Source: Raillietiella orientalis (Eukaryota). From it: a stretch of 64,000 nt of DNA. The stretch lies in the NCBI GenBank assembly GCA_036172245.1, contig JAYWIR010000008.1:2046001-2110000 (forward strand). The letters run 5' to 3'. The translations under genes were made by a program, and so were the position numbers. Below the pieces are notes generated by a model, which worked only from the letters and a program-made list of their open reading frames with translations, was not told the DNA's origin and ran no database searches. Of the stretch, positions 1 to 63,825 are shown piece by piece (the first letter of the stretch is position 1; every line of letters begins with the position of its first letter).

Positions 1-3000
1 TCCCCATGGTCGCCACGGCATCCGCCGGGGGCTGCAACGTGCCCCCGCAGAAGCGTTCCGCACGGCAGGTCGTCGATGGCCCCACTCCCGAGGAGCCGCA
101 GGGCACCTCCAGGAAGTCGGTTGGGCAGTTGGTGCCCGCCATGAAGTTGTTCGATCCGGCGTAGATCATGTCGGAGGTCGGCATCGAACCGGTGGCCAGG
201 ATGAAGTACAGCGAGAAGGACCCGGACTTGGAGTTGGTGTTGCACTGGGTCAGGCAGACGGAGCAGAACCCGGACTCGGTGCGCATGCACATGGAGTAGT
301 CCTGGAGCGCCAGGTGGCGCCCTTGGTTCTGAGGGAGCCAGTTGAAGCTCCAGATCGTCCCCGTGGAAGACATGAAGTACTGGAGACAGCCGTCGGGAGC
401 TGAAAGGAATCGCTCTTGTTGGGCGCGCTGAGTTCGCACCTCTCTCTTCTGACCTGCGCATGCCCTACGGCCCGCCCGCATTCCGGGACCTCGGAGGGAA
501 CAATCCGCCTCACTCTGAGCCAGCTTCGGCGTTCCCGGAAAGGGAGGCGGCAGTTCTGCTCTCCTTCGCATTCACGACTCCCTCTTTCACTTCCACTTCC
601 CCCAGACCGAGGTACTCTTCTCCCTCCCCTTTCTGTCTCTCCCCCCGTCTCTCTCCCCCAGAGGGTCTTAGGCGTCCGTGCGACTCCCATGGCGTTCTGG
701 AGGCGATGTGAACTTTAGGACCACTCGGGATCATTCTCAGGGAACCACCCCATCGCTGGGAGGAGGTAGGGCTCAGAACCAGAAGCCGGGAACTCTCATC
801 CTGGGTCCCTCGGGTGAGGTTCGTCACGAAAGATGCCAGATCCACCATCAGGTCCGGGGCGCCGTTTTCCAGCGGTTTCTCCGCTTTTCCTGCACCTATC
901 GTGAAGAAGCACCTATCGGAGGACTCAGACGCCTTCCGAGGTCATAAACGAGGCTCCAGGAGTCGACGCCCTCTCCGGGACGCTTCGAAGATGCGAGCCG
1001 ACCCCTTCCGTTTCCAAGCTTCTCATCTTCAGTGTAATCGAGGCTCGCCGTCTTCCAGGTGGCTTGCAAATACTGCCACCTGGAAGGCTCAGTTTGTCTC
1101 TCTCTTCAGCCACCATAGTCCCGCCGTTGGCTCCATCTTCAGCTACCACGAGGGCGCCGCGACTCATCCCTTGCATGTGCAGCTGGGTTCCTTGGGACTC
1201 TTCGAAGCCGGGGGAGTGGAAGTGCGAAGAGATCCCAAGAGCGGAGCCCGGTTTTTGTGCTCCACCACTGATCGAGAGAATGGAATTTGTCGCTGGACTT
1301 TGGGATGCTGCTCCACCGCGTCCATGTCCCCTCCAGCTCAAGAAATTTCGCCTCCTCTGTCAGTGTGTTGGGTCAAATGCAGGTCGCTCGATGTCCGCGG
1401 CCTTTCCCATTGTAGGCGGTCAGTGGGTCCGCCGCATCAACATCGAGAGCCACAGGAAAGATTGTGAGAGAAGCATCCCGTCCAATGGCTAAACGCGTTG
1501 GCGGCTCCGCTGGACATTCCTCGGAGGATCTGCTTTCACGGAGGAGGGGAGGGGGGAATCCGGCTGCAGCGTCGCAGAAGCTCCGTCCGGAAAGGCTCTC
1601 CACTCCGACGCGCTGGATCTCGTGAGGCTGACAATACATCAGATGCGATTTGGGGATGCTGATCGATGCGATGGAAAACCAGCATCCTTTTCGGCTCCTC
1701 CGTTCCTTCGTCCTCCTCGACACAGAGAGACGGCGCGGCGCGAAAGCGGTAAGTTGCGTCCTTTTGCGGATTAGCGGTGGATCGTCTGTGGCTCCGGCGT
1801 CTCCATCTGAGGCAATGAGACGGCAGCAGCGTTCTTTAGGAGGAAGGATAACGAGCTGCGGACCCTCCTTGACTAGGTGTGGGACCTAATTCCACCTGTT
1901 GAAGCTCGCTGGGAGGGGGCTGGCCGGTGGCACCGCTGCTCGCGCATCGTCCCAGTCGCCACCCGTTCAGAGAGTCACCGTCGGTTCGCGGCTCCTCAAG
2001 ACGCAGGGGCACTCCTCACCAGCTCGTAAGCATTCCGGGGAGTTAATCTTCCCTGAGTCTAACACCCCCTTCGGGAAGGGGTGCCCCTTCACACGGACAG
2101 CCATGCGTGCGCGCGCACCGCGTTGCGCACAGCTGGCCAACCTCCCGCGCCATCATTCGGAAGGAAAACGAGAACCGGCGAAAAGTCTGCCTCTTCGACC
2201 CATTCTGTAAGCTGCGGGTCCTGCGATGCCAAGCGCGACCGCTGCATCCGACCGAGGGGAGAGCGGGGCTGTCGCACGAACTTGCCCTGCAGGTCTCGCA
2301 GAGTTCCCAGGAGGCAGTAAGCTCCACCAGAGCTTTCCTCCACCCTCTCAGGCAGGGGATTGATGCTTCTCGGATGCTTCAGGAAGAGTGCTCTAGAGAC
2401 CGACTTTGCTAGAAGGTTTCGTCTGACCCTAAGAATTGGGCGTCTGCACGCTGACAAGGGAATGACCATGCTGGCAAGGAGGAGGCTTGAAAACTCCGAC
2501 TGAGGAAGAAGGATGGAGAACTCGTCAACTCCTGGAAAACGGAAGAAGGCGGAGAGGGTGATGATGAGTGAGGAGAGAAGGAGATACAGACGCAGAGGAG
2601 GGCCTCCGTCACCGCTGGACAGTTTGCTTCGTATCCAGAGCAGGGGTCCTTTCTTCTCCCTAATCCTTTTCAGTCTCACAGAGAGTATCTGAGCCTGGAC
2701 TTCACTTGACCCCGCTCGAACTTCATGGATCTTCTGCGACCACACGTAGGCAAAGCGTCATCCTTCCCAATCTGCACATGACCCCTTCCCGCCATCCACA
2801 CCGAGCCGGGAGCGCAGCAGTCCCCCCATGGGGTCAGTGTAGACCCACGTGCCCCTTACCCAGGTAGTTGCTCCCGCAAGCCAGCTGGGTGACGATGATT
2901 CTCCAGGTCCTGATGCTGCTCGCCTCCACGGCGGTGATGGTAAGAGTCACCGGCGCGAAGTTGTAGCCGCTGTGCACGTATACTGGAATGCACCGGGCAA

Positions 3001-6000
3001 CCAATCAGAGAGCAGAAAGATGAGAGTCCGCCCCCCCTCAGAGGAGGAGGGAGGAAGAGAGTCCGGAGTGGCCCTGGGAAATCAGGGTTGAATCTGGCTG
3101 AGAACGGAGGAGGAGCGAGCTACGGGCGTGTCTGCGGGGAATCCCTCAAACCCAGGTTTCCTTCGACTCCCTACTGAGTTTGGAGGCGGCTGCAGTGACA
3201 GGAATAGGTGGGCAACCTCTCGGCAGAAGGCGTTCCAAAAGCAGTGCTCTTGGAACGTGAACGGGAGGGAAGAGCTGGCGTTCAAGGGACGTGGCCAGCA
3301 CGTGGGATCAGGAAGTGGAGGGGAAAGGAAGGATGGGCACGGGATGCCTGGTGGGGGAAAAGGTCATGCAGGGTGTACGGGTACGCGCGCGTCCGTGGGA
3401 ACGCTGGTAGAAGAACCCCGCGAAGGCATGCTCTCAAGGCTCCGCCCGTGTCTTTGACATGAGGCGGTGCTCCGAGGCAGGAAGAAGCCATTGAGAGGAA
3501 ACTCTTACTGTGCTGGTTGTTGTTATTGCCGCAGATCGGAGGAACAGAAGTGGTTGCTCCTCCCACCGAAAACCTGTCGTTCACACACTGACCTTGGGCG
3601 TTCGGCTGCTCGAGGATGAACTCCTCGAAGGTCAACCTGGAAAGCAGATGCTTGATGAAACCCCTGACTCAGGATGAGGGAAGATGAGGTCCTAAGAACA
3701 ACCTACATCCGAAGCAGGGAACCGGGCAGGCTGCTGGCCTTCGACTCAACGCAGGTGGAAAAAAAGAGAAAGAAAACAAAAAGAAGCAGAGCTCTCAGAG
3801 ATGGGCGTGGTCGATCTCCCCCTGCTACGACGGATCTATTCAGGGGTTGTCAGGCTGGCTGGATCGAGGGAGGTTCCCCGAGCGGAAAGCCACCCCTCTA
3901 TCGGACGAGTGTCCTTCCCGTAGTCCTCAGCAACTGTCCACGAGTTCAGGGGGTGGATGATGGGTGGCAAGGCGACCGTCGTCGCCCTGTTCGACCACGT
4001 CTCGACACCAGTTGGGAAGTCGGAAGAGGGTGTCCCCGGAGGCGGAAGGGACAGGAAGTGCCTGTCAGCGAAAAGTTCCTCTTCTTCGTCGGGAAGTTGA
4101 ATCAGGGGAAGGTTGAAAAGGTTACACTAGTGTCCCCGGGCCCTGAAGGAGGATGAGGCTATTCTTCTCCGAAGCGAGCTGTCGGCGCTTCCCCCAAGGC
4201 TGGTTCCGAGACAGCGGCCAGCCCTGAGAAGAACCCGTGCAACCTCCAGCACACGGCCTGTCAGCCGCACGAAGGGCAACATGGAGCTTGAGTCGTTGCC
4301 ACAGCCTGCACGGGAGCACCTACATGTAACGAGCCTCTGAGCGTGGGAGGACGCTCCGGGGATGGCCTGCGGTACCTGGAGCCAGCATAAGGCTCTCGGT
4401 CGACCCCTTTACCGATGCCGTGTCTCTTCCTTCCGTGGCCAGGAGCATTCCCGAGGGTTTTTTTCTTTCCCTCCAGTTCCTTTTGCTGGAGAGAGGTAAC
4501 CACGAGGTCACTCCGGAACGCCGTCGCTTCTCGCTGGCGAGCCTTGAGGGAGGCGGCGATTTCTCTCCTTTCCTGGCCTCGCCGAAGAGATCCCTCTGGA
4601 CGAGGACGTGAGGTCCTTGGCCAGGAAGGGAGATGCAGCCATAAAGAAGCGGAAGGACTAGGTCCGAAAGGGGAAGGAATCCACGTGGGGCAAGCAGGAA
4701 ACTGCATCGCGCAAGGGTTCGTCCGTGCTTCGGAGGAGTGGCGGCAGACAAACCCGTCCGCCTCCCTGCAACAGGGGGACGCCCTATCCGGGGAGGAGAA
4801 GCGCGGCAGTCGCTTCCGCCATCTCTCGGAAGTCTCGTCTGGTTCAGAGGCATCTCCTCTTTCGCAGGTTCTGGTCCGGCCGGGACTCCAGGAGTCCTTC
4901 CGTCGCTGCAGAAGAGGGCGGACGGGGCGGTCTCGGAGATTCGCGCTCGCACTGCGGAGGGGTGCGGAGGGACGGTTGGGAACATCCTGTTGGATCAAAG
5001 TGAGGAGGAAGAGGAATAGCCAGAGGTAACACAGAGGACTATGGATCAGAACCCGCGCCTCGAAGTGCCGTCGGGACCCGCGCGGTGGCTTCACCTAGCC
5101 GACTATCCACGGACGAGAGCAAAACCTGAAGGGCTGCACGCTACTCAAGAAATTCCCATGGAAACGCGACAGGAAGGGACTCGTAATGGACCGCCACCCG
5201 TCTTCTTAATCCGCTCTCGCTCGTCGCCCTGGAAGCGGGGGCGTCACGAGCTCTTTCTGGAGGCAAGAGGATGGACCGGTCTAGAAGAATGGGAGGAGCC
5301 GGACGGCAGCAGGCACCCGCCATGCCCCTGGTCTCCTCCGCATCGGGCGTCCAGGCAACAAGCCCAACGCCAGAACCGTGCGCCGAAGGCGCCGACCTCT
5401 CAAACTAAGGAAGAAGCCTAGGAAGAGAGCCGTGGGAGAGAGCGACTCCTCCTCTTCTCAGGACCTCCTGCCTGAAGATGGAGACAAGCCTGCGTCCGCG
5501 GAAGATCGCTGCCGTGGGGGCGAGGGGAGTGTGGGGCGCCTTCCGAGTTCCGGTCTCCTGGTGCCGGAGGTCGCTCCCGAACGCGGTGCTCGACCGCCTT
5601 CTTCCAATCCCATCCCGGGTACCTCGGTCCGGCGCTGCCTGCCAGGCAGAGCGGGGGAGGCTTCCGGCGCACGAGCTCACCTGGAGCTTTGTGTTTTGTC
5701 TTTCAGCAGCAGTTGTTTCCCCTCACGAGGTGCTGGTAGTGGTGGCGTAACGATGTGGTCTCATCATTCCAGGGTTATGATAGTAAAATGACGATCGTAG
5801 TGGTGATTGGCTGTTGCTGGTGTGCTCGTGATAGGGCAGTGGGGATGAGAGTGGCCGTGGGGGTGTGACCATGGGTTGGGGCAACGGCACTGGCGGGCTG
5901 GTGGAGATGATGGTGGTGTACGTGGTGGTGTTGTTTGCGGAGTGATATTGGCATGGTATCGCGGGGAGGAGGCAGCGGCTATTGGTCGGTCTTCGGAGAA

Positions 6001-9000
6001 GTGGGAGGGCTTTCGACCCGAGGCCGGCTGCTGAGTAAGTGGCGTGTGCGACCCTAGCGTGCAGCGGCGAGCGAGGCTGACCGAGACCAACACGGGAGAG
6101 GCGGAGGAATGGGGGCATCCCGCGCGAGGGACCTCGGCGCCGATGAGAGGCATCGGGATGCAGGCCTCTGACCCTCTTCCCCTCCCTCCCTCCTCCCCTG
6201 GCTACGTCACGCTCTGCCCAAGAGGCTCGCGGAGTCGAAGGGAGGTCGCGAGTTCTCTGCTTCTCTCCCCTTCGACTGGCGGCCATTACGGGGGTGGGTG
6301 GAAACTGACGGCAACCGACTCACCTGTATTGGCAGATGTTGGGCCTTGGCTTGAGGATGCTGAACTGGCAGGCTCCGCTCGCGTTCCTCAGCGTGTCAGG
6401 ACCGACGAAATAGGTGTTGTTGACCATTGTGTTCGAAGAGCACCCTCGAGCGACTGAAACGTTAGTTTGAGAGCAATGGGAGGTTCAGAGAGAAAGGCCG
6501 GAGTGGCCGGTGACTCCTCCGGGAAAGGGTCTCTGCCTGTCTTCTTTCCTCCCCCTCCGATCCCCTTCCCGCTCCTCCTTCCTTGAGGGGGGCCACGCTG
6601 CGACAGATAAGTTGCGCAGGCTGCCGCTAGCTGTCGAAATCTCCGAGGCCATCCTGTCGGAAGGACTGGATTGACAGAGCGCCAGCCTCAAGGAGAACAT
6701 GACAGTTGCGTGCAGCTTTCCACAGCCTTTCCCGCGACTCGATGAAGAGCCCGGGAGCTAAGGACCTCTGCGCAAGAAGACGCCAGAGAGAGGAAGGGGG
6801 ACAGGAGGGAGGGGAGGGATGAGCTGGTTGCGCGCAGGCCCTGGAAAGCAGACCATGAATTTCCAGCTGTGCGCGCGCGCGCTTCGCTCCCGGAGAGAGA
6901 GCGGGGGCGGATCCGCCGCCTCTCTGCGCCAGCTCGTTCGACGGCGGCGCGGACGGTCCGCCGAATGGGAAGACCGGAAAGAGGCGTGTGAAGGAGGAGA
7001 AGAGCGAGTGCTCAGAGGACCGACGTCCGCGAGGCGCACAGCGCGACCCGAGTGGCATCTCCGCCCACGCAGCATCGGAGAAGAGCAACCGAGCGTCTAA
7101 AAGGCAGCGGAGCGCGCCTCCTGCCTCCATCCGCACGAACTTCCTGGGGAGAACCAAGCGGGGAGCTAACTGACCTGATCTGACCAGATCGTGACGACGC
7201 GGAGGACGGATGGAACGCACCGCGGCAGGAACGGATTACCGGCGGAGGGAGACGAGGGGAAAGCTGCGAACGCCCACGAAGATGCACTTTGATCTTTCCC
7301 TCTCTCCTCCGAGCATGATTGGGAGGGAACGAGGGCTAAGAGCCGGAGAGGCAGGTCTGAGGGACGAAGGTGGTCCTCACGCACGGAGGCGCCACCTCGG
7401 AATCGCCTTCGCAGCCTCGGCGCGTGCGCGCGCAAGGGAAAAGCACGACACGGAAGCGCCCGAAGAAGAGAGCGAATGGCCACAGAGCTCCAGAGACATC
7501 TTGAGGCGGACATTGCGCATGCAGCCAGGGACTCCCGTTCGTCCGAGGGACGTTGTAGGCGGCGCCGGGAACATCAACTCGTCGCGGATCGTCAGAGACC
7601 AGCAGCGCTCCTCCCGCCGAAAGCCAAGAGCCTCCACGTCCTCGCGAACTGCACCGGGGGTCTCTGACGCGCCTGTTAGTGGGTGACTGCAGGTCCCAAG
7701 GAAGTCCTGGAGTCCGCACACTCCATTCCAGGGAGGAAGGAGATGAAGGGGAATTCCCCGCCCTCAGAGAGGAGGGAGACGTGCAACCCGTGGCGTTGCA
7801 CCTGGCCTTCACGCCGGATGCCTTCCTCCCTCTTTCCCTTTCCCTTTTTTCCCTGCAGGCTCGCGCGCTGCGCAGAAAGACGCGTCGAGATTCCAGCGGA
7901 GGGGTCGAAATCTTCCCAGGCAGTCGCCGCTCCGAAGAGCTCTGGGTCGCTCTCTTCGAGAGGGCAGGTAGGCTATTGGTCCTCCGACAGGAAGAAAGCG
8001 TTTCCGGAGAAGACTCGGAGAAGGCGGAGCCCACCGGAGTCAATCTCGCAGCGCGCTACCTTGCGGTCGTGGGACCCGTCCTTTTCGGAAAGGACGCCGC
8101 TGGCTGGCTGCTCCCCCGGGCGTTCGTTTGTTCGCGAGCCCCACGGTAACGCGACCTTTTCTCGCTCTCCGGAGGGAAGAGAGGAAAGGACCGTCGAAGG
8201 ATGCTCACCGTAGCAGCAGCTGCCGAACCCCCGTGCGCAGGGTCCGTTGGCCATCCCTCCGAAGCCGAGGCATTGCTTGGACGTGTAGCAGGTCCCGCTG
8301 CGGCCGTTGCTTCCCACGCACATCAGGTTCTCGAACCGGAACAGCGTGAAGAGGGCGACTGGAAGACAATGGGGAAGGCGGGAGGTGAGCATCGGGGAGG
8401 TCTGGTGCGCGCGCGCACGGAGGGCAGACGTGGAGGACGACCCCTCGGTTGCCAGAGCGAGCGGGGAGCCCGAAAAGTTGGACTTCCGAGCGTCCTTGCA
8501 AGCGATTTTCGGGCGTTCTTTCCTCCTTCTTTTCCCCTCTTTCTTCCCCTTTCCGCGAACGCGCGTGGGTGAGAGTGCCTCTGATGAGGAGTATCCCCAC
8601 CACTCCAGCCGAGATCCTCGCTCGCCTCTAGGCCTATTTTCATCCTGGATGGTTGGGTGCCCTTGCTTCCCTCCCCTCCTCCCTTTACGACCTGGCCCCG
8701 GGAATGAAGAATGAGACCCCCTATCCGCAAACTCAGTTTCATAAGGCGAAAAATGTGCGGGTCCGGAGATGCCTCCAGAACTGCATCTTTCTGGATCTTC
8801 GACTCTCGTCTTCGGCAGGTCTCCACTGTGATACGCAAGCGCCTCCGCTGAGGTTTTCCTGCCGACGGGTCGAGGAGGGCGAATCCCCAGTGCATCCCGG
8901 GCGGCGCCCTCGGGACGACCCAGTGGCGGAGGGAAGCCACTCCGTGCTACGCCTCCGGCACGAGCAGCGGGAACCTACGGAGGAGTGGGTGGGTGGAGGG

Positions 9001-27084: not shown

Positions 27085-27243
27085 ACGGTCGGTCCAGTCG
27101 GTCCAGTTGGTCCCATCGTTCCAGTTGGTCCCATCGGTCCAGTTGGTCCCATCGTTCCAGTTGGTCCCATCGGTCCAGTTGGTCCCATCGGTCCAGTTGG
27201 TCCCATCGGTCCAGTTGGTCCAGGCGGTCCAGGCGGTCCAGTC
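27085..27243. repeat. 9/18-bp minisatellite encoding Gly-Pro-X (collagen-like) repeats on both strands
   Basis: The unit ggtccagtt-ggtcccatc is tandemly repeated. It translates as [18 protein letters not shown].. (minus, within ORF 27039-27581) and GPVGPI.. (plus). Confidence 0.9.
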
Positions 27244-50700: not shown

Positions 50701-52912
50701 AAACTGCAAAAAACCGCACGCGACGATTTAAAATAAGCGGCAGCATCTCGTCCCGTTCCAGGTACCGCTGTCAAGATTCGCTTCCCAGCCGGTTCTCGAG
50801 CAGACAGGTGACTAAGTGCTATCAATGAGCAACACATGAAAACTCTAATGAGGTACATGAAATCCAAGGGCGAATGTGCATTTCATTTCACTAGAGAGGC
50901 CCAAGGGAAATGGAGCAGTGCGATGCCCAGATGCTGGACGACACTACGGAAGAGCAGTAGGCGAACCGCCACCTAACTCGGACCAACGAAAGAGCGATGG
51001 CGTACCAGCGACAGAGACCGGAGCACCACCAAAGGAAGCGATCTGCTTTCTAGGAATTCCATGAAACAGATGCAGGGGACGCGGCCACCTGGACCTTCGG
51101 CCAAGAGCCGACCCGACGGCTGTGCTTGGAAGGACCATTTCCGATGACCCTCAACCACACGGGAATGAATTTTGCTGAAGATCTCCCACAGCCACGTCAC
51201 CGGAGAAGGAACACTTGAGCCAAGTGTGACTGGAAACCAATCTGTAACTCGTAGGGCCACCAGCGGCTGAAAAAATCGAGCGCCGATCCCAGAAAGCAGC
51301 AGTGCTGGGATTAACCTCTTTCCCTAGGGGGGCACATGCAACAGCAGCTTCCATTTGGTCCACACTCGTTTACCCTCCCCATTTCGTGGCACCGCAGGAA
51401 GACAAAGATCTAATCATCTCTGTAGGGCTAATGAAAACCTTTGAAAAAAAAAGCATCAGCCGATTGTGTTGCAGCTGATGAAAGAAAACTGATCATCCCG
51501 GAACACACGCAAGCGCCTGGCGGAAGCCGAAAGATGAGGGGGGAGGGTTCACATCAGCCCTGTGAAGATCAGTCAGCTGCCTAATCAGGCGCAAGGACAC
51601 CCACAGCTGGCAGTTCCTCACAGAGCACATTAAACCGTCTCTGCAAAACTCCAAAAACCATTCTTGGATTCGGGGAAATCGACCAGCCTCTGGAGAGGAA
51701 GACAGACAAAGGATGTGTTCTTTCTCGTTTACAAGAACACGATGCGTTCGAATGGGGACCAGAGTTCGAATGCCGCAGGACCCTGAGAGATTCTTCGGAA
51801 GATGCAGCTGGTCTTCAACTCAACCATACCAAAGACACGTCGGGTGGCAACCTGAGAAACACTGTGGAGGCATCAAACACCTCGCTGCACCCTTGGAAGG
51901 GGGGAGGAGAGCCCGGCGGGATGTGCGAAGGTCTTCTGAGAGCAGCGGCAGTCTTCTCGAAACAGCAGCCTCACGGGGCACGTCTGCGGGCCCGGCGCCA
52001 GGCCAAGAAGGCGCCCTTTTTCTAATCCGACCTTCGGCCTGGGGAAAATCCCAGCCAACAGGAGGGAAGCTGCGAGTGGAAGGAAGCGGATGGGCCCAGA
52101 GATTTCAGCGCAGGTGGAGTACCAGCTACCGCGTTACGCAATGGGGACCTGTCGTGGGATTCGTTCCCGCCTACTATGCAAGGCAAATCGGATGCATTTC
52201 ACCCGAGTTCGTTTTGCACACGTGCGTTCCTACTCAATGTGACCAAGAAGAGCACACACGAAAAATTTTTAAAGGCGCTTCATTGGATTTCTGATTAACG
52301 TTTTCCTGGTTTGCAATTTGCTTAAATAAGAAGCTGGCAAAGACAGCACCGATGTGATGAACTTTTCCAGAAGTTGACCTTTAAATAGTATTCACGCTTC
52401 TCATAATTAAACACGAGGTGTACTTCGGAGGCTGAACAAGCAAAACATTAGAGGTAATTGTTTTGAAAGACAGGAAGGAGTGACATAAATCATTACAATA
52501 AAGATACATCATTACAATACATATTTTATCGGAAGCATTTACATTCAAGTAGTTGATGCAAGTCATTTGGTACACACAATATCCAGCACGTTGGTAAACA
52601 GTAAATTTTCAATAAATTGACACTTTTGAAAAATTGATTTAGAAAAGGAATAGGATGATCAGTTAATATTACTATTTACTTTGGATTAGCGCAGAGGCCA
52701 TACTGTGCCTGTTTGCCATTTTTGAAAAGGAGCCACAGCAGAATTACAAGCTTGCAAATCAGAAACCCACTCAAACATCCAGGCATAAGTTCCTCCATGG
52801 TTTTTGGAATTTGAAGCATAGGAGCAATACAAACAGCACTGTTTCCTCTTTTATAATTCTTTACATCACTACTCCTTAATGTTTCATCATGCATATGAAC
52901 TCAATGTGGTAA

Positions 52913-52918
52913 TTTATT
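52913..52918 (-). promoter_or_regulatory. Candidate polyadenylation signal of ZFAND1
   Basis: AATAAA on the minus strand ~60 nt after the stop codon. The region is AT-rich, so chance occurrence is possible. Confidence 0.45.
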
Positions 52919-52977
52919 ACAAAGAGTGGGTATATCAATGTGAGATTGCCTAAATGAAAATTTAGTGGCAAGTATGT

Positions 52978-54088
52978 TTAATCATGAAGTAGCAAAGTTA
53001 TTGTTTCACCATCAGTAATCTTTTGTTCTAATAATAAGTGTTCAAAGGACATATGGACAGGCAATGTTTCATTGTGGCAATTTGAAATCAGTTTCTTAGA
53101 AAACACATAGTTACTCAAATTGAACTTTTCACTCAAGTAATCAATGGATTTTCCAACTGTCCAGAACTTTGATAGGAATATTGGTTTGGATTCTCCCTCT
53201 GCAGTCTTTGGCAATTTAATATTGAAATATATTCTTTCCTCAGAAGGTATCTGAGCATTACCAATAGCTTTCTGTTTCAAACGCATCATGTTTACCTAAG
53301 ATTAGAACACATTGGACTTGACTGGTGAAATTTCTAAAAGTGGACGGCACTAATTATTCAAGCTTACAAATAAATTCGTTTATAAACCAAATCGCCTTAC
53401 ATATATTTAAACATATGAATATATGTAAACTTACTAAATTTGCGGTTTTTAATGACCTTCTACCACAGCACTTGGGCTTACTAGCTGTAATAATAGGTGA
53501 TTTCAACTGTGTGTTTGTTTGTACTCTCGGTTTATTTGAAGAACACGAATGCACTTCTGGATAACGATGAAGCAAACAAAAGTACCTATTACATGATGAA
53601 CATAATGACAGATTGTTTGATTCACGGCATCCTTCTATGGTACACGTTTTTCGGGCACTGTGTTCCACTGGCTGCAAAAAAACAATTTCCTAACATTCTG
53701 CGAACGAGTTGCAAACATTATCATGAATGCTGATGAATTCATTTATTTTTTATGGCATTCAGTAATTGCAAACCAAATATCTTGTAAACATTCATCTAAT
53801 AGGCTTACTTTTAAATTCAGAATTTGATGACATGCACGATTACATAAGCATTTCTCAGGAAATAAACGATATGCTCTTAAACCAAGTTACTGAGAACCAA
53901 AACTGCAACTGAAATATCACCTTTATTGTGGGATGTTCATTAACACAAACTGTGCAGTCATGGCATGCGGGACTATAATGTTCTTTGCAGAAGACCTTTT
54001 GACAAAACTCACATTTCACAGGCAAAAAGTCCAGGCAATTGCAAGTTGACAAAGCACAATGAGCTCCAATTTCAGGAAACTCTGCCAT
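52978..54088 (-). CDS. ZFAND1: AN1-type zinc finger protein 1 (two AN1 fingers + C-terminal ubiquitin-like domain), ~240 aa
   Basis: Exons 54088-53921, 53671-53435, 53295-52978, joined by phase-0 GT-AG introns. MAEFPEIGAHCALSTCNCLDFLPVKCEFCQKVFCKEHYSPACHDC; CTIEGC..CSSCNRYFCLLHRYPEVHSC; VNMMRLKQKAIGNAQIPSEERIYF..FLSKFWTVGKSID. Confidence 0.93.
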
Positions 54089-56784
54089 GGGGCAGCACAC
54101 TCTCACCGCCAACCGTCGTTGCGTTCCCGCGTGCAGGAGCGGGGAAGTCGAAAGAGAACGTCCGAGGTGCCAACATATCCGTGGAATCCCACTATTTAAA
54201 ATATTGAATCTCTTGATATCATCCCCCAAAAGGGAACACTTCCAAAGAATAATGTTCTGCTTTCGACAAGTTCACATCGGAAATTCGTTTCCAATATCGA
54301 AATATTTATATCCGTAGTTTTTGTAGACCACCTTATAAAAGATGAAAGACCATAGACTCCTGAAACAATCAAATAGAGTTAGTTAAATTTTATGAAGCTA
54401 AAACAGATGAAATCTCGCATTCAGCCCTCCATATTTTTTACGCAAAAAACTGAAAACTTGATTATATATTGATCAGTGCCTGTTCAAAATTTCCACCGGA
54501 GGATAAATGAAACTTTCAGTTTTAGATCGAACTGGTTAATAAGCCCTTAGAAACAAACAGTTAACAAAGTGTAGTTCCATTGAAGGAAAAATGTGATAAA
54601 CACAAATGATTAAAACAGCAGGAATGTAGAGAAGGACGGAAAAAGCGAAAGAACGAAACTGGCCGAAAACGAAATGATCACATTCTCGCAAGAAAACAAA
54701 AGAAAAAAAAAAACACTGGCATGTAATAAGTTACATGTTGCATATAACAAGATCAATACCAATGCTGCAACGAGGCAAGCACAAAGCAAATATGCTCAAA
54801 CCATGATGTGCATAATAACCTCAAGGAAAACGGAAATATTTTAGGGAACGGATCGATGTTTTAAAGCATTGATATGCTTTAAAGCATGCTTGAACTTGAT
54901 ATGCTAATTTTGAAAGTTGATTGAGACAAGAGTTTAGAAATTCAGACAGACACATATTTGAGGCGATGAAAATTTATCGACTGTTTACTAAGGACAGAAA
55001 ATTCCAAGAATATTAAACAAACCTATCGTGCAAAACACTGGAATGATAATCATAGCATCTGTCCAAACATTCAGGCCTCAGTTTAAACTAATCTCATCCA
55101 GTCTAGCATCTGCATACCCAAGTTTTTCCATAATCATGAAACAGATCATTGCAAAATACTGATAAAGTTGACAGGTGCTATTGCAAGAGCACGGAATGAT
55201 GATAAATGTATTCCCAAATGATAATCGTCAGGAATTTCATTAGTACGATATTTTGCGTTTCAAAAAGCCTTAATGCTAAATAGATTCTGCAGGATTTTTC
55301 CCCCCTCTGGCTTCCAGAATGTGTTACGATTCATTGGCTATGATATCCTTCACTTTCATCAGAAGCAGGGATAATACTGAAGTAGATGGCCAATCTAGAT
55401 GAATCATAAGTGTCAAGCAAACAAAACGGTAGTAAAATATGATAAATTAAAAATAGACTATGTAAAGAAAAGTTGTGTTTGCAAAGTCACCTTAATGTTT
55501 ATTTTTAAGAATAGCTAGGACTATTATCTAATTGTGTTTGTTTGTTTTCAAAAGCTGTATGTTGTATCAAGAAGTTTGCTTTTTTTTTTGTTTTTGTTTC
55601 TATCTTTGTTTTCAAAATTTAGTTTTAGAAAAGTCTGCATGGATGTGAAAGACAGAAAAGAAATACGAAGACAAAAACAAGTAGCATCCCAGCAAACCAT
55701 CGAACTGCATGGTGCGGGCTTCTGAAAGAAATCGAGAAAGAAATCTTATTAATCTTGAAGCATCTGAAAGCATGACCTCGTCAGTAACGAACACCACAGC
55801 AAAGCACATAAATGAAGTTGCCTGGCACTAACACTTAATACACAAAAGTTTTCTCGTGCAAAAAAGTCCAGAAGCCGAATTGAGCCTTCAAGGAGGTGTG
55901 CACCCCGGTGTCTATGTGGTAATGGAGCGCAGCATCTTCCACTCTGCCAAACATTCGTCACCTGATGGAAGCTGTCATCTGTCCCAGTGCACTTCTTGCA
56001 CAAGGGAAGAAGCTTCTGAATAGAATTACTGCATTCTCACCTTGAGGCAGCTCCGACATCCAGCGCACCGTGCACCCAGACGGAGGTCACCCCGGAACTG
56101 GAATCTCACTCAAGTATCCCGCACTCGCGGGCGGGACCGGGGTCGTTCATTTCTTGTCATTTCCAAGGTGCTACAAAAGAGGCCGCTTGGAGGGGGGCTA
56201 CGTAGGAATTGGGTGAGACATGGGCAGAGCAGCTCGCCCCCACAAGGTATTTCGAAGAGAGGATTAGACTGCAGAAGAGGAGGCGGAGGCGGGGAGGGGA
56301 GAACCGAAAGATCTCCCGATTCGAGTGATCTTCCATCTCCTTGCTGCGGAGCGGAACTGAGAATCGGTAGCAGCAGTCTCCATCTACTCCGCCCCCTGGC
56401 TGCTGAGAGGCACGACCACGAGAGGGGAGGGCACAGCCAGAAACGAGTAGTCTCTCGGACAAAAAACCGGGTCATGACATCTTCACTGCTTACCCCTAAG
56501 GAACGAGGGATCGAAGCTCTCAGACGCTCTCGCCGCGCAGTGGAATGAGAGACTGGGGGGGGGGGGGGGCAAGCTCAAGTTCCGTGTCCCTCCTTGGTCT
56601 CCCCCTTCCCCCCGTCACCGCGGGAATGCTCTAGTCCCCTGCCCCCTCCAACCTGGCAGGACGGAAGGACTGCGTTCACAGAAAAACAAATTTTTTTTTT
56701 TTCTCTACTCCTTGCTCGGTTGCTCCCACGGTCTCCAGGGAAAACGGATGAGCCGAGAGACGAGGACAGCGACTCTGCCTTCTC

Positions 56785-59700
56785 TCACCAGACCTTGCAC
56801 TTACTTGAGGGATTCATCGGCGAGTTCTCGGGACAACGGAAGGCCTCGGCGAACGGTGGGAAGTTTGCCAAGGTTCCCAGGACCCTGGAGGGATGCGAAT
56901 GCGTCATTGGGAGCGGTCAGGCCCCAGGGCTGAGCGGATCTTCCCGCCGTGTTGGGAAAGAGGAAGAGGAAGAGGTTTTCAGGGATGGCGCTTCCACGGG
57001 AAACACAGAACATGAAGGCGCCTCGCCGGAAGGGCCTCGCATTCACGGGGGATCTAGTAAGACGAAGGGAACGGGAGAAGGATCCTTCGACGGTGGAAAC
57101 GCCCATCGGGGTCGCGGAGCAATGCATTCAGGGGAGGATTTCCAGCGCGTTTTCTTCGACGAGACGCGCTGGGAACCACGGGAAGGGATAGAGCCAGTTG
57201 CCAAAGTTCCACAGGACGATGACGATGCCGGTTCCACCGCAAGCGTTCAGATGTCTATCGCACCCTTCCCAGAGGTTCCCTGGGAGACGCGTCACCGATG
57301 AGCCCGACCTCCATGCGCTTCTTGGAAGAAGCGCACCCGGGGAAGCTGGCTGAACCCTTTTTCCTCCCGCCTTTCCTATCCGCGAAAGAGACCCCGAGGA
57401 CCGTGGCGAGTCACGACGAGCAAGGGGCGAGGCGTACGCGTCCCCACCCAGTTAGGGAAAGCGCGTCCTCATCCCAAGGGTGGAGACGCGGTCAAAGGGG
57501 AGGGAAGGAGTCAAGCTGTGGGCGAGGCGGCGGGGCTGAAGCGTGGCCGGCACCTCGGCAGACATCGCTCCCTCTCTCCCTCGGGCTCCGCAAGATGTAG
57601 ACGAAGGTTAAAAAGAAGGGGGCGTTTCGCCCTCCCCTGCCTCTCTGTGTGGGGAAAGGAAGGGGTCTTTTTTTTTTCCCCTCCCGTTTCTTCCGAGAAG
57701 TCTGAGGGAGCGTTGCTGCCGCCACCAGATGGGAAGGGGAAAGGGGAGAAGCGCGAGATCGGAGCCGGGGGCAGCTCGGCGGTGGGCCCCTCGGAGATGA
57801 GTTAGGAGGCACCGAGCCGGCAGCGAACACGTGCGACCGACCTCGTGGAAGCACGGCGCGAGCGTCGTCTTACTCTGCTTGCGGCTACGGACTCGGAGAC
57901 GGGGGGCAGGGGCGGGACGGAGGGGGGGAGGGGAGGGAGAGAGAGAGAGACAGGGGCGGCGCGTCGCCTCGCCCGCGGCAACCGGCTTCCCTCCGACCAC
58001 TGCAACAACGCTCCCCTCCGGCGGTAGCCCCTGCTGGCGGTGCATCGCCGGCAGGGAGAAAGCAGAAGGCCGTCGTTTCCGGAGCATTTCCAGGGAGGAA
58101 GCAAGAGGGAAGCGAGGGACAGTGAGGCGAGTGCGTCGGGGAGGCGGCGTGCCCCCTTCTCCTCCCCCTGCCGGCCTCGGCCGAGCTCCGCGTTGCCAGC
58201 GAGACGTCGCTCATCCTCCTCCCCTCTTCCTCATCTGCGCGGATGAATCTTCCCCTCCGTGCCTGAACTTTCCCGGAGGGTGGGGACTGGTCTTGATCTT
58301 GAGGATCGCCGCCTCCAAGGTCATGGACCCGCACCACATCTGAGCGAAGTTGAGGAAGAAGAGCTGGTCGGGGTTCAAGTCCAGATGGGGCAGGAGCAGG
58401 CTCCCTTTGCCCTCGGGGTTCCTGCTCTTCCAGTTCTGGAAGGCCTGGGAGAATGGAAGAGGAGGAGGTCTCAAGGCTTCGCCCCTCCGCCCGCCCTCAC
58501 CGTGAACGCCTGCCGGATGCCGCCCAGGTCCGCCATGTTTTCGCCTTGCGTCGCCGTGCCGTCCACGGTGATGTTCGTCTCGGTGATGCTGAACTTGCTG
58601 TACTGCTCTGGGGAGGGGGAGGAGCGGTCGATCTCGCTGTGGGAGGGGGTGGAGGGGGGTAATGAAGTCTGCAGGGAAGCTCGGGAGAGAAGGGCCGCGA
58701 ACTGCCAACCCGCTTTTTCCCTCCTGCCCCTGGAGCAACCCGGAAGAAGGGAGAGCGCGCAGCTTGCAGGGATCCTCGAGTCCTCGGGGAGGGAGCGAGG
58801 CCGCGGTAAGGGGGAAGCCCTGCACCTGCCCCGAGGAGGGGAGGCATCCTTCGACGGACCGAGCTTTTAAGAAGTGCGCGGCTGAGAGACGCCTTCCTGC
58901 TCGAGAGGGAGGATGATGAAAACGATGGTGGTGGTGGTGACGATGGCAGTGGTAATGGTGACGGGACAATGATAGTGATAGGGTGGTAATGAGGCGGTGA
59001 TGGTTGTAGTGATGGTGATGGGGTCATAATGAAGGTGGCCGTGACGATGATGAAGGGGTGATTGTCGCGGTGGTGATGATGGAGTGGCAGAGGTGATGGT
59101 CGTTGTGGAGATGATGGAGATAGGCTGGTGACATGGTGATGATAGTGGCAGTGGTGATGGTGGTGGCGGTGGTAGCGATAGGCTGGTGATGGGATGATGG
59201 TGGTGGTGGACGTGGTGATGGTAACGATGGTGGCGATTGTGGCAGGGGGAAGAGGGATCGTCCGGCGAGCCCCTCGGAGCATCTCCCGAGGGAGGATTCC
59301 CTTTCTCTGCTCCGACCTCAGGGGCCTCCAGGGGACGCTCGCGCGGGCGTCTCCGAGGAACTAGGAAACCGCGTGTTCCAGAGGCCAATGCGAAGCCGCG
59401 GTGCCTCCGTCCCACGGGGGGGAGGGGAGAAGGAAGGAATAAGGCGCGCTGCACACGAAACCGAGTCGGTGCGCCACCGCGCAGACGAACCGCCACCTCC
59501 GAGCGGGGTCGAGGTCTCCTCCCTTTCCCCTGCTCACCGCTCCCGCACCCGCATCCGAGCCCGCCATCCCTCCGGCGCACGCGTGGAGAAGCGACTGCGG
59601 TGGCGGAGCGTGCAAGGCCTGCTGCCGCCTCCCGGGACGAGGGAAGGCGCGAATGTGCGCGTCCAGGAGCGGAAGGAGGAGGGAAAGAAGCCGTCAGCAG

Positions 59701-62700
59701 GCGAAGGCGGTTCCTCCTGCAGCCTCCCCCCCTTTCCCTACGCGAGTGCAGGGTAGGGGAGGATGGCATCTCCACCACATTTGCGACTCTCCCTGGCTCA
59801 AGAAGGGAAGGAGGGGGAGCCCCGCCGCCACTCCTCTGCTCACCGATCATGCACCGGGTCCGGGAGTGGAAGCGGATCTCCGACAGGTGGTTCCACCAGG
59901 AGACGACGTTCCCGTCCTTGTCGAACTGGCGTCCCTTGTCGTCGAACCCGTGCGTGATCTCGTGGCCGATGATGACGCCGATGCCCCCGTAGTTCAGGGG
60001 CGCCGGGAAGTCCTTGTGAAAGAACGGAGGCTGCAGGATGCCGGCGGGAAGCACTATGGGAGGAAGGAGTGGGTGGAAGGAGAGGGAAGGAGAGGAGGAA
60101 CGCGAGACCCACATATCTGGTTCCTGCTGCGGCTGTAGAAAGCGTTGACCTCCACGGGGCACATCTTCCATTCCCCCTTGTCCACCGGGGCGCCGTATCT
60201 CTTGAGATCCTCCTGGGCGTGGAACTCGGCCGCCGACAACATGTTCTCGAAGAAGTACAGAGGTTCGAAGCTCAGCTGGAAGATGGGAGGGAGGGGGACC
60301 TCAGAGAAAGGGTGGTTGGTCCTTGGGCACGACGGCCGCAGGGAACGAGCCGCGGCGGAGACTCCCGCTGCGAGGAGGAGGTTGCCACGAACGACTCTGG
60401 AGAATGCCCTCCTATCGCCTCCCCCCCGAGTAGGAGGCGATGGCTGGCCGTACTGAGCAAGCGCACGCCCACAACCGACGTAGGGCATCCGACGACGGTG
60501 GCCGCCGTCGAAGGGCCATGCCCTCCTGCACGCCCTTTTCCCGCATACGCGGAGGAGAGGCGCTCCCGGTGACGGAGGTTTCCCGAGGGAGGATCAGAGG
60601 CTGTAGAGAGAAGAGAGTGAGGACCGACCCTCTCCGCTCTATCCACGCCTTCGTAACTTCGGGTTCAAAGTGGCGAGAAGAGGAGGGGGGAGGAGCGCGC
60701 GTCCACTCGCGCGACGCCGAGACGACGGCACCCTCGGAGCGAGTGGGCTTAAGGAATGAGGCGCCGTTCTGCCTCTCTCCTCTCATTCTCTGCACAGCAG
60801 CCCGCCGTGAGTCGCAGTTCCTCCGCGCTCCCGGTTACGGGCGCGTAGCGGAGCGTATCCCTCTTTATAAGGCAGCAGCCACTCTCTGCTCCCCCTTCCC
60901 GGAGGTGACTGCCAGGTCCGGATGATCCTTTCTCTTCCGCTTGCCTGCGCGTACTCCGCGTCCAGGCGCCTGTCGTCTTGGATGAGCTCCGGGTAGCCGA
61001 TCTTGTAGTCCATGTGATTCAGCTTCACCATGGCGTATCGCCTGGTGCTCCAGTCCATCCAGTCCGTGTCGTCCAGCACGTGCATGAAGCCCTCCTTCAG
61101 CTCTGGGACAAAGTGATTTTCCTGGAAAGGTTGGCAGTAGGAACGAGGGGAAGAAGTATAGAAAGGAGGAGAAGGAGGAAGGAAAGAGGAGGAAGAGAAG
61201 CAAGAGAGGAGGAAAGGACGAGGGGTTGAAAAAGAGGAGGAGAAGGAAGGGAAAGGGAGACTTACGACGAAGGCGTAGCTCTCCTCGTCGAAGAACTCTT
61301 CCACGAACATCTTGCCTACGACGAGCGGCATGGTGGCCTTGAGCACGTTCACGCAGAAGGTCCACCTCTCTGGGCCCTTCATCCTGCCGAAGATCTTCTT
61401 CAGGAATTCCTGCCTAGCATCGTCGAAGCGCGAGTCCATTGACTTGACCCTCTGCATGACGAACCTCCAGAGCATGTAGTTGGCCACCACCCTGGAGGCA
61501 AAGAGGTCGACCGGCGGAGGACAGGGGTGGAAGAGATAAGGGGTTGGAGTGTTCCGAAGGCTATGAGAGGGAGTCTTAGGGGAGAGCGAGGCGGAGAGAG
61601 AACTTTCCGACGCTGTTCTCCCCCAGGACCATGCCGGCGGCGGTAGCGGCACGAGGACAGTGGCGTCCTGCCTCCGACCGCAGAGGAGGATCGCCCTTTC
61701 GATCTCAGCCTCAAAGCAAGAGCGAACGCGGGCGAGAAAGGTGGAACGGGAAGATCTCTTGAGGAGTCACGAAAAGCGACCGCTCTGCTGTTCGAGGGCG
61801 GGAAGAGAAGGAAGAGGAAGAGGAGATTTTTTACTCGGTGGGCGTCTTCCGGATGAGCTCTTCGAGCTCCTCGAAGTACTTGGTGTTGAAGACTATGGCC
61901 TCGTCGGCGAAGCGGACGCTGGACACCAACTCCTTCAGGATGAACTCCCAGTCGATGCGGGGGACCTTGGCAGCGAGCTGGCTGAGCGTTCTCCTCTGGT
62001 ACGAGGACGCCGATCCACGGATCGCTTCCTTGGACGCCTGGATCTACATCCGCAGGAGAGGGAGAGAATGGGAGAAATGAGGAAGGGAAGGGAAGCCGTC
62101 TTCGCCTTGGATCCGGAGTGGTAGTGACAGCAGAAGGAGAGGGGAGGGGGAGCTCCTCGTCGGACGGCACCACCGAGCTCTCCCAGTGCACCTCCGTAGT
62201 TCAGCGGGTGATCCAGGGAGCAATCGCGAGACCAAACGGCAGATTACGCCGCGTGGCAGCGGTGTGTGAGACCCTCCTCCCCCTTTCCATTTCCCTTCGG
62301 GCGCTTGCCCCGCTCTCAGAGCGGAGGAGGGCCAGGGAGTTGCCGAGGGGGACGGCTCTGGGAGAGGCGGATACTCGGATCGCTCGACGGCGGGTAACCA
62401 GGTTCTTCGCTTCCACCGGGAAGCGCACAGCCCTGGCGACACGGATTCTCCCCGGGTGATCACTGCGGACCCGCTGCGAGTAGAGAGAGGAGGAGATGAG
62501 GAAGCAGGAGAAGAGAAGAGCGGTGGGAGTTCCGTTCGTGAACCACTAGGGTCTTCGCGACGGTGCCTCGGGACTCCCACGAAGAGCGACAGACCTCTTC
62601 AGGAAAGCCTTCAGCAGCGCAGGGTGGAGAGGAAAGGGAAGGGGAGAGGAGGAGGGAGGGATCGGTCGGGAAGGGAGCTCGTGCCAGGCGTTCCCGACGC

Positions 62701-63825
62701 AGGCGAAGGACGGCTCAAGGAGCGCTTGGTCAAGAAAGAGAAGGCTCTACCTCGGCCACCGACATTTCGAACCGCAGCACCTCCGCCATCTTTAGGGCAG
62801 CCCGCGCCCGTGGGGCTCCCAGCAGCACGGCGACGTCCGTCATGAAGGTCAGGTACGCCTCTCGGAACTGTGAGTGGCGCTCCTTCAGAAAGTAGTCGCT
62901 GGGCATGGAGAGGGACGCGTGGTCGATCTGGGAAGGGGTGAGGGGGAGGGCAGAGCACACCTGGCGTGACCCACCTCGATGATGTGGTGCAGGGAGTCGA
63001 GGCTGTCCGGTCCCACGCTGACCGCGATGAGGACGTCCTGGTTGAAGAGCCGCAGGCGGACCATCATCTCCATCCAGTCGAAGGCCCTTTCCTCCCAGTG
63101 CGGCTGGAGCACCGGCCAGCCACCGAGGTCCTGCAGCAGCGCCAGGAGCGGGGTCGGGCCTCTGAGCATCAAGACGTCTGCCGGAAGAACCGCACAGGCA
63201 AGTCAGGGAAGGAGTAGGTCCCTTGTTCTCCCCCCGCGACCTCCCCAGGGAACGTGCCTTCCCGCATGCACGAGGAGTACAGGGTGAGGAGCTTCCTGCG
63301 CGCGTTCCAGGCGCTTTCCTCCTGGTCGGACGTGAGGGAGCCGGAAGGAGACGGCCCCCAGCGGAAGACCGAGTCCAGCAGCACCCTGGAGACGTCCTCC
63401 GCTAAGGGACGCGCAGGCGAACTCTTCTCCATCATCCCGTGCAGCTTGTCGTCGATGTCGTCGCGCAGCTTGGAGAAGGCGTCGTACACGACCTTGTCAG
63501 ATGGGATGGGGTGGCGGCGCTCCCAGTTGCCGCAGGCGTACTGGAAAAAGTCGACGCAAGGGTCGGCGCCGGGGTCGAGGTAGCTGCTCATGAGGCGGGC
63601 CTGCGAATCGCACACGTCCGCGGCGGCTGGAGGAGACCGGAGGCAGGCGCACCGCCCGACGAGCGTCAGGGAGAGCGACGCCAGGGCCCAAGTCCACGTG
63701 ACCCGTGGGGAACGCCCTGCCCAAACCGCATGGGCGGCAGAGCGTACAGGAGGAGTCTGCCCTTGGAGAATCTCGCGTGGCCGCCGCCGTAGCGCCTGCG
63801 AGGGAAGTCCCGGTGAGGTGGGCAT
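56785..63825 (-). CDS. Neprilysin-family (peptidase M13) zinc metalloendopeptidase; 5' end uncertain
   Basis: Exons: (63825 ATG, or acceptor 63795 or 63626)-63258, 63177-62975, 62927-62751, 62043-61835, 61491-61266, 61121-60945, 60275-60113, 60053-59844, 58607-58501, 58444-58263, 56884-56785. Phases are all consistent. Motifs [98 protein letters not shown]. Confidence 0.95.
58912..59240. repeat. Degenerate (GGT/GAT)n trinucleotide tract inside a neprilysin intron
   Basis: About 330 nt of gatggtggtggtggtgacgatggcagtggtaatggtg.. seen directly. Confidence 0.9.

Follow-up and report, generated by a model that had tools for sequence, protein, structure and literature searches.

An M13 peptidase gene in the 64-kb window (the whole stretch of DNA analysed here), from an arthropod-like animal, raises the question of why three of its ten introns should begin with GC, which is, to our knowledge, the one variant donor accepted by the standard splicing machinery. 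The baseline of ~1% that the initial annotation had given for such introns in animals agrees with published data (PMC7072748), in which U2-type GC-AG introns account for <1% of animal introns (PMC7072748, PMC2490688). The predicted gene and its parts are as follows.

56785..63825, minus strand: M13 (neprilysin/ECE-type) peptidase gene, start to stop codon, 11 exons, 773 aa, HEITH, C-terminal CxxW
63258..63825, minus strand: exon 1, with inferred start codon, putative signal-anchor, and first part of the M13 N domain; PF05649 1-69, E 1.2e-17
63178..63257, minus strand: intron 1, GC-AG, 80 nt, donor aag|GCACGT
62975..63177, minus strand: exon 2; PF05649 76-132, homologue-profile positions 159-236
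62928..62974, minus strand: intron 2, GT-AG, 47 nt; the reference model has the top profile score
62751..62927, minus strand: exon 3; PF05649 134-194
62044..62750, minus strand: intron 3, GT-AG, 707 nt
61835..62043, minus strand: exon 4; PF05649 198-262
61492..61834, minus strand: intron 4, GT-AG, 343 nt
61266..61491, minus strand: exon 5; PF05649 266-335
61122..61265, minus strand: intron 5, GT-AG, 144 nt, donor gtc|GTAAGT; boundary not fixed by the profile alone
60945..61121, minus strand: exon 6; PF05649 341-381
60276..60944, minus strand: intron 6, GC-AG, 669 nt, donor cag|GCAAGC
60113..60275, minus strand: exon 7; no Pfam match, homologue-profile positions 490-544, E 2.3e-11
60054..60112, minus strand: intron 7, GT-AG, 59 nt
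59844..60053, minus strand: exon 8, zinc-binding HEITH; PF01431 13-81, E 4.8e-26
58608..59843, minus strand: intron 8, GT-AG, 1236 nt
58501..58607, minus strand: exon 9; PF01431 83-116
58445..58500, minus strand: intron 9, GT-AG, 56 nt
58263..58444, minus strand: exon 10, ending ...HPPGKF plus two bases of an Arg codon; PF01431 129-173
56885..58262, minus strand: intron 10, GC-AG, 1378 nt, donor cag|GCACGG, phase 2 within the conserved Arg codon
56785..56884, minus strand: exon 11, C-terminal ...CKVW, stop TGA; PF01431 176-205

An imperfect 58-nt tandem repeat lies inside intron 8 (59075-59237).

Joining the 11 exons gave a 2322-nt coding sequence for 773 aa with no internal stop. Pfam families PF05649 and PF01431 matched 10 of the 11 exon translations in colinear order (all but exon 7), the matches extending over positions 1-381 of PF05649 and 13-205 of PF01431. 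When the homologue profile was compared with the 64-kb window, 11 colinear matches fell on this gene and none elsewhere. M13 peptidases are characterized by a zinc-binding HExxH motif and a downstream E-x-x-x-D motif, and both are present in the translation, as HEITH (exon 8) and GENMAD (exon 9). Insect neprilysin-4-like and ECE-like M13 peptidases share the PF05649 and PF01431 architecture, the HExxH motif, and the conserved C terminus, and are 40 to 44% identical to the present protein across ~700 aa. However, no close orthologue was found, the best full-length homologue showing 43.5% identity (703 aa, single HSP) and the best exon 1 match among 1.84 billion representatives showing 39%. The gene is intact and presumably encodes a functional peptidase.

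The GC donors of introns 1, 6, and 10 have exactly the coordinates and motifs reported in the initial annotation, including AG at positions -2/-1 (aag|, cag|, and cag|), and the other seven introns are GT-AG. It had also been claimed that the reading frame could be joined only via GC, nearby GT dinucleotides being in the wrong phase or, at the last intron, deleting the conserved FR. Phase alone proved insufficient for this claim, as in-frame GT-AG pairs exist at junctions 1 and 6 once the acceptor is moved. The part concerning FR held, since the best GT alternative at junction 10 is a donor 6 nt upstream that removes these residues, and homology and site strength favour GC at all three junctions. 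Against a profile built from 57 homologues, we scored 864 GT/GC x AG pairings that preserve the frame and introduce no stop, drawn from +-120 nt around the ten junctions. The GC model was top-scoring at all three GC junctions (858.9 bits), versus 847.9, 842.9, and 846.0 bits for the best GT alternatives at junctions 1, 6, and 10, respectively (margins, 11.0, 16.0, and 12.9 bits). Among the seven control junctions the reference GT model was top in six. The exception was junction 5, where a GT located 3 nt upstream scored 3.4 bits above the model and a GC located 9 nt upstream equalled it, and the resolution of the profile test is therefore limited.

In an alignment of 18 homologues, no gap crossed any of the three GC junctions, save one single-residue insertion in one homologue, and the F/Y-R-V motif was retained across junction 10. 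The profile matches abut at the GC junctions (158|159, 491|490, and 712|707). The in-frame GT competitors have only 2, 1, and 2 of 7 consensus flank matches at junctions 1, 6, and 10, respectively. From these comparisons, we infer that the GC donors of introns 1, 6, and 10 are real splice sites. An artefact, whether by mis-modelled junctions with a nearby GT in use, by assembly error at the +2 C, or by decay of a gene copy, appears very unlikely. In-frame GT-AG alternatives are indeed present at all three junctions, but they cost 11 to 16 bits, delete or add conserved residues, and match the flank consensus at 1 or 2 of 7 positions. In addition, it would be unlikely for the assembly of a 7-kb gene to contain separate T-to-C errors at precisely these three +2 positions while the 2322-nt frame, HExxH, and the C-terminal motifs are all intact.

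Two further genes in the window were available for comparison.

1..8392, minus strand: animal-CUB-like secreted protein gene, cut by the window start; 5 exons, 4 GT-AG introns, start codon inferred
52978..54088, minus strand: ZFAND1-like gene, 240 aa; 3 exons, 2 GT-AG introns, Pfam zf-AN1 x2 and UBL_ZFAND1

The CUB-like gene was located through a GC3 scan, and Atlas look-alikes of its product bear PF26080 (score, 0.97). Pfam comparison of 269 ORFs of >=95 aa (positions 1-56700) and of 150 of the 494 ORFs of 50 to 94 aa (33.8-50.9 kb) yielded only parts of ZFAND1 and a collagen-like repeat.

Donor flanks were scored at seven positions against the (A/C)AG|GT(A/G)AGT consensus printed in PMC2490688. 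The GC donors matched at six (intron 1), six (intron 6), and five (intron 10) positions and outscored the window's 13 GT donors (mean, 4.4/7; one-sided Mann-Whitney p 0.025). The gene strand contains 585 GC dinucleotides, and the only two with 6/7 flank matches are the donors of introns 1 and 6. AG|GCAnG occurs seven times, three of which are the M13 GC donors. All three GC introns end in AG, with a polypyrimidine tract before the acceptor. The best explanation of these predicted introns is that they are ordinary U2-type GC-AG introns with the known signature. Like them, animal U2-type GC-AG introns have GC at +1/+2, AG at the 3' end, AG at -2/-1, and a polypyrimidine tract, and their remaining donor positions are nearer to the consensus than those of GT donors (PMC7072748, PMC2490688). 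What departs from the usual animal case is their number, three of the ten introns of a single gene or ~30 times the usual share; they are predicted here from genomic sequence. An extended donor box is the hallmark of U12-type introns, and a U12-type assignment was rejected on finding that the donor octamers of the GC introns do not contain it. C-to-U editing of the donors had no support and was set aside.

The initial annotation had suggested relaxed donor recognition in this lineage, a reading that the flank scores (6, 6, and 5 versus the GT mean) disfavour. [quoted passage not shown] Such animal lineages do exist (PMC7072748), and these two invertebrates resemble the present case in having many non-GT donors with an upstream AG and A at +3 (PMC7072748). 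They use GA and GG donors, however, whereas none of the 16 introns of the M13 gene and its two neighbour genes has a GA, GG, or other odd donor, and the flanks of the GC donors are closer to the consensus rather than weaker. Rfam at gathering thresholds found no RNA gene, and hence no U1 gene, in the 64-kb window. The isolation of the lineage is compatible with relaxed recognition, as no close relative was found among 15 billion proteins: an exhaustive exon 1 search returned 3492 matches, none at E<=1e-30, the best being from Ladona fulva and Ischnura elegans (36 to 39% identity). The exon 8 search gave 6296 of 6304 candidates at E<=0.001 (top identity, 71%), a metagenome scan with exon 10 yielded no orthologue but four weak loci that aligned in part (34 to 68% identity), and word searches with two further exons (ZFAND1 UBL and CUB) returned nothing.

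Base composition differs sharply within the window. The M13 coding sequence has a GC3 of 0.88 and its introns are 63% GC; the CUB-like gene is similar (GC3, 0.84; intron GC, 0.59-0.63), versus a GC3 of 0.32 and intron GC of ~0.30 in the ZFAND1-like gene. GC donors make up 3/10 in the M13 gene, 0/4 in the CUB-like gene, and 0/2 in the ZFAND1-like gene. The initial annotation had counted seven neighbour introns without a GC donor; the lack of GC donors was confirmed for six (four CUB-like and two ZFAND1-like), and the contrast between the M13 gene and its neighbours is weak. Likewise, the comparison of the GC-rich genes (3/14 GC donors) with the AT-rich gene (0/2) is without statistical weight.

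At a 1% rate, the probability of at least three GC donors in ten introns is 1.1e-4, and that for 3/16 is 5e-4 (95% interval of the rate, 4-46%), but these values overstate the significance because the gene was picked for looking odd. They bear on whether the three introns are a chance cluster at the usual GC-AG rate of ~1% or less, with no compositional or regulatory cause, which we regard as unlikely. The absence of GC donors in the other two genes, including the CUB-like gene with its high GC3, agrees with chance, as does the choice of the window as unusual, since a few such clusters would be expected among thousands of multi-intron genes at P ~1e-4 each. Set against this are the low probability itself, the lower 95% bound of 4%, and the GC3 of the M13 gene, which offers a cause with a documented precedent in GC-rich algae.

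GC-biased conversion of donors, one of the causes raised in the initial annotation, fits best with the composition of the M13 gene, but the CUB-like gene is equally GC-rich and has no GC donor, and local GC alone is therefore without predictive power for the GT-to-GC switch. The explanation that we favour, by a modest preponderance, is that GC pressure makes the +2 position drift from T to C at donors strong enough to tolerate the change. The M13 gene lies within a strongly GC-rich domain. Where substitutions or gene conversion favour G/C, the T at +2 is the single invariant splice-site base that can change to C without loss of splicing. Because a +2 C would be tolerated only if the remainder of the donor is well paired with U1 snRNA, strongly flanked donors may become GC and persist. 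We take the change in the three donors to have run from T to C and attribute it tentatively to GC pressure and not to regulation.

Published comparisons bear on this drift in both directions. The GC content of splice sites correlates with that of the genome in animals (r 0.434; PMC7072748). In Emiliania huxleyi (65% GC), GC-AG introns account for 56% of 241 mapped junctions (PMC4028052), and GC-rich pelagophytes have ~14 to 17% GC-AG introns versus 0.32% in a lower-GC relative (bioRxiv 10.1101/2024.10.30.620910); the authors of both studies attribute the excess to GC content. In mammals, by contrast, the effect of GC-rich regions is small, and mutation bias has been argued against as the cause of GT>GC accumulation (PMC2490688). 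E. huxleyi and Aureococcus/Pelagomonas resemble the present gene in combining a high share of GC donors with ~63 to 65% GC DNA and AG acceptors. However, the algal sets are whole-genome, transcript-supported, and from protists, whereas ours is one animal gene read from DNA, and, unlike in the GC-rich algae, the GC-rich domain shares an animal genome with a gene of 35% GC located 700 bases away. Drift of donors under GC pressure appears to have been described for GC-rich algae and not for animals; our literature search found no paper joining "GC-AG introns" with "biased gene conversion" and none on "GC-AG" together with Lepeophtheirus salmonis. A broader reading, which we consider possible but doubtful, is that the genome, from a barely sampled arthropod-like lineage, is a mosaic of GC-rich (GC3 0.84-0.88) and AT-rich (GC3 0.32) domains and that biased gene conversion has turned at least a tenth of the donors in the GC-rich domains from GT to GC.

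The GC donors could also be weak sites kept by selection for regulated or alternative splicing, for example intron retention leading to truncated products. Alternatively spliced genes show an excess of GC donors (PMC2490688). Intron 10 of Caenorhabditis elegans let-2, like the introns described here, begins with GC and belongs to an animal gene whose product is secreted or membrane-bound; its +2 C was shown to be necessary for developmentally regulated exon choice (PMC2490688). In the M13 gene, read-through of intron 10 would stop after 17 more codons, with loss of the conserved C terminus, and a GT lies 4 nt downstream of the intron 1 donor. Such control nevertheless seems distinctly unlikely. 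No alternative or duplicated M13 exons are present in the 64-kb window, read-through of intron 1 leads to a premature stop, and the strong flanks are those expected of efficient constitutive GC donors.

At present, the locus is one gene with three well-supported predicted GC-AG introns, which warrants an annotation note and provides a lead but implies no new mechanism. If biased gene conversion has made at least a tenth of the donors in the GC-rich domains GC, the genome would be the first known among animals to parallel the GC-AG-rich genomes of haptophytes and pelagophytes, and it would provide a natural experiment on the strength of the selection that holds the T at +2. If GC donors are numerous in GC-rich domains, the animal would offer a system in which GC-biased fixation could be weighed against the selection that keeps a splice-site base almost invariant. 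In that case, gene predictors restricted to GT would break or truncate such genes, and failure of gene prediction due to GC donors has been reported for E. huxleyi (PMC4028052).

The neprilysin/ECE-type (M13) peptidase gene was modelled with 11 exons, 10 of which gave translations with colinear Pfam matches to PF05649 and then PF01431; the exon 7 translation had no Pfam match. A profile of 57 full-length homologues, run on the six-frame translation of the entire window, identified exactly 11 M13 pieces, including exon 7, all colinear and on the minus strand, and revealed no duplicated or extra M13 exons in the window. At its N terminus, the protein carries a putative signal anchor; it also contains HEITH and GENMAD, and its C terminus ends in Cys-x-x-Trp. 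Insect neprilysin-4-like and ECE-like proteins align with it in one segment of ~700 residues at 40 to 44% identity. All 10 introns end in AG and 7 start with GT, while introns 1, 6, and 10 start with GC, exactly at the coordinates and with the motifs proposed in the initial annotation.

Features of the window:
63825-56785, minus strand: M13 peptidase gene, 11 exons; joined frame of 2322 nt, stop-free, 773 residues
63257-63178, minus strand: M13 intron 1, donor aag|GCACGT
60944-60276, minus strand: M13 intron 6, donor cag|GCAAGC
58262-56885, minus strand: M13 intron 10, donor cag|GCACGG
54088-52978, minus strand: ZFAND1-like gene, complete, 240 aa; GC3 0.32; two GT-AG introns, ~30% GC
8392 to window start, minus strand: animal-CUB-like gene; GC3 0.84; four GT-AG introns, 59 to 63% GC

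For each of the ten M13 junctions, all GT or GC donors and AG acceptors up to 120 nt away were combined, and each full protein from the 864 in-frame, stop-free combinations was scored against the homologue profile. At junctions 1, 6, and 10, the GC model ranked first of 59, 127, and 26 alternatives, and the best GT alternatives were 11.0, 16.0, and 12.9 bits lower, respectively. Such GT alternatives were among the in-frame, stop-free combinations, and therefore in-frame GT-AG pairs do exist; the proposal that the frame can be joined only via GC donors is supported by homology and site strength rather than by phase alone. At junctions 1 and 6, the GT-AG alternatives are in frame only if the acceptor shifts as well, and the GT lying 6 nt upstream of junction 10 removes Phe-Arg, as stated initially. 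In an alignment with 18 homologues, the (F/Y)-R-V motif split by intron 10 was retained, and no gaps fell at the three junctions apart from one inserted residue in a single homologue (junction 6). Among the seven control GT junctions, the model scored best at six; at junction 5, the model was outscored by 3.4 bits by a GT lying 3 nt upstream and was tied by a GC 9 nt upstream, and therefore the profile alone does not resolve boundaries at the scale of one to three codons.

Donors were scored at the seven positions outside the dinucleotide of the consensus (A/C)AG|GT(A/G)AGT, as printed in PMC2490688. The GC donors of introns 1, 6, and 10 had 6/7, 6/7, and 5/7 matches, respectively, versus a mean of 4.4/7 for 13 GT donors across the three genes modelled in the window (one-sided Mann-Whitney test, p 0.025), and the competing GT sites had 2/7, 1/7, and 2/7. 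The gene strand contains 585 GC dinucleotides, of which only two, those of introns 1 and 6, reached 6/7 (19 had 5/7), and three of the seven occurrences of AG|GCAnG are the donors of introns 1, 6, and 10. None of the three sequences resembles a U12-type donor. Sequencing errors are an implausible source, as all three would fall exactly at +2 in an otherwise intact gene. Such compensation by the flanks is described as characteristic of GC-AG introns under the major spliceosome (PMC2490688), and introns 1, 6, and 10, as putative introns of this kind, fit that description. Relaxed donor recognition, suggested initially, is disfavoured: the GC donors exceed the average donor in strength, and GA, GG, and other odd donors are absent from the 16 introns. 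Splicing-level regulation of the peptidase would be another candidate cause, on which the one relevant observation is that the window holds no alternative M13 exons.

The M13 coding sequence is 62% GC (GC3, 0.88), and its introns are 63% GC. GC donors occur in 3/10 M13 introns versus 0/6 in the other two genes, for which 0/7 had been counted initially. The probability of at least 3/10 at a 1% baseline is 1.1e-4, and 3/16 places the underlying rate at 4 to 46% (95% interval); both figures overstate the case, since the finding was picked for looking odd. In the animal data summarized in PMC7072748, GT-AG introns make up 98.3% and GC-AG introns <1%, and the GC content of splice sites increases with that of the genome (r, 0.434). 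For mammals, PMC2490688 describes GC-rich regions as modestly but significantly richer in GC donors and gives 298 GT>GC changes versus 40 in reverse, an excess for which its authors doubt mutation bias as the cause. In Emiliania huxleyi, GC-AG accounts for 56% of 241 curated junctions (PMC4028052), and in GC-rich pelagophytes, for ~14 to 17%, versus 0.32% in a lower-GC relative (bioRxiv 10.1101/2024.10.30.620910); both reports ascribe this to GC content. The M13 gene, an animal gene of 63% GC with 30% GC donors, fits the pattern of these GC-rich algae. The best reading is that donors with otherwise strong positions would have become fixed for C in place of T at +2, neutrally or nearly so, under GC-biased substitution or gene conversion. 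A chance cluster within an ordinary genome is possible, and the CUB-like gene, GC-rich too and with GC donors in 0/4 introns, gives fair warning.

GC-AG introns, flank compensation, and the link to GC content are already known. No papers joining "GC-AG introns" and "biased gene conversion" were found in the literature searched, and this limited search gave no example of a GC-driven GC-AG excess in animals. The three donors are worth an annotation note. Matches of the M13 and CUB-like genes indicate an arthropod affinity, and nothing close turned up for the genes searched. M13 exon 8, the most conserved, shows at most 71% identity to any match; exon 1 had no match below 1e-30 among 1.84 billion representatives, its best named matches being dragonfly and damselfly proteins (36 to 39% identity). 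A metagenome scan with M13 exon 10 gave only four matches, all weak and partial, and a word search gave no homologue of the ZFAND1-like or CUB-like exons.

The sense strand of the M13 introns (56785-63825) is strongly pyrimidine-rich (C, 37%; T, 21%; G, 26%; A, 15.5%), with C+T reaching 88% in intron 5. Intron 8 carries an imperfect 58-nt tandem repeat (59075-59237; ACC/ATC-rich units, ~2 copies, 73 to 76% matches), which a low-complexity stretch in CUB intron 2 (~5760-5950) resembles by eye; a repeat finder gave no link between them. The CUB-like gene (1-8392, minus strand) encodes a secreted protein and continues beyond the window start; a local scan gave no Pfam match at E <=0.001, while its Atlas look-alikes carry PF26080 with very high confidence.

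The ~44 kb at 8400-52000 (47 to 63% GC) has few genes for such GC-rich DNA and only three tandem-repeat arrays; no protein domain was recognised in ORFs of at least 95 aa or, at 33.8 to 50.9 kb, of 50 to 94 aa, and there was no Rfam match. An 18-nt tandem repeat at 27098-27232 (7.5 copies, 94% matches) reads on the minus strand as collagen-like Gly-Pro-Thr/Met triplets and gives the only other Pfam match (Collagen, E 3e-7), with no evidence of a gene. The ZFAND1-like gene lies wholly inside a 3.6-kb AT-rich island (52300-55900; 35% GC; CpG o/e, 0.63) with sharp edges (~300 bases), in surroundings of 55 to 63% GC (CpG o/e, 0.84 to 0.93) and only ~900 bases from the stop codon of the M13 gene. 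Mosaic methylation, a recombination cold spot, a recent insertion, and an assembly join are candidate origins of the island.
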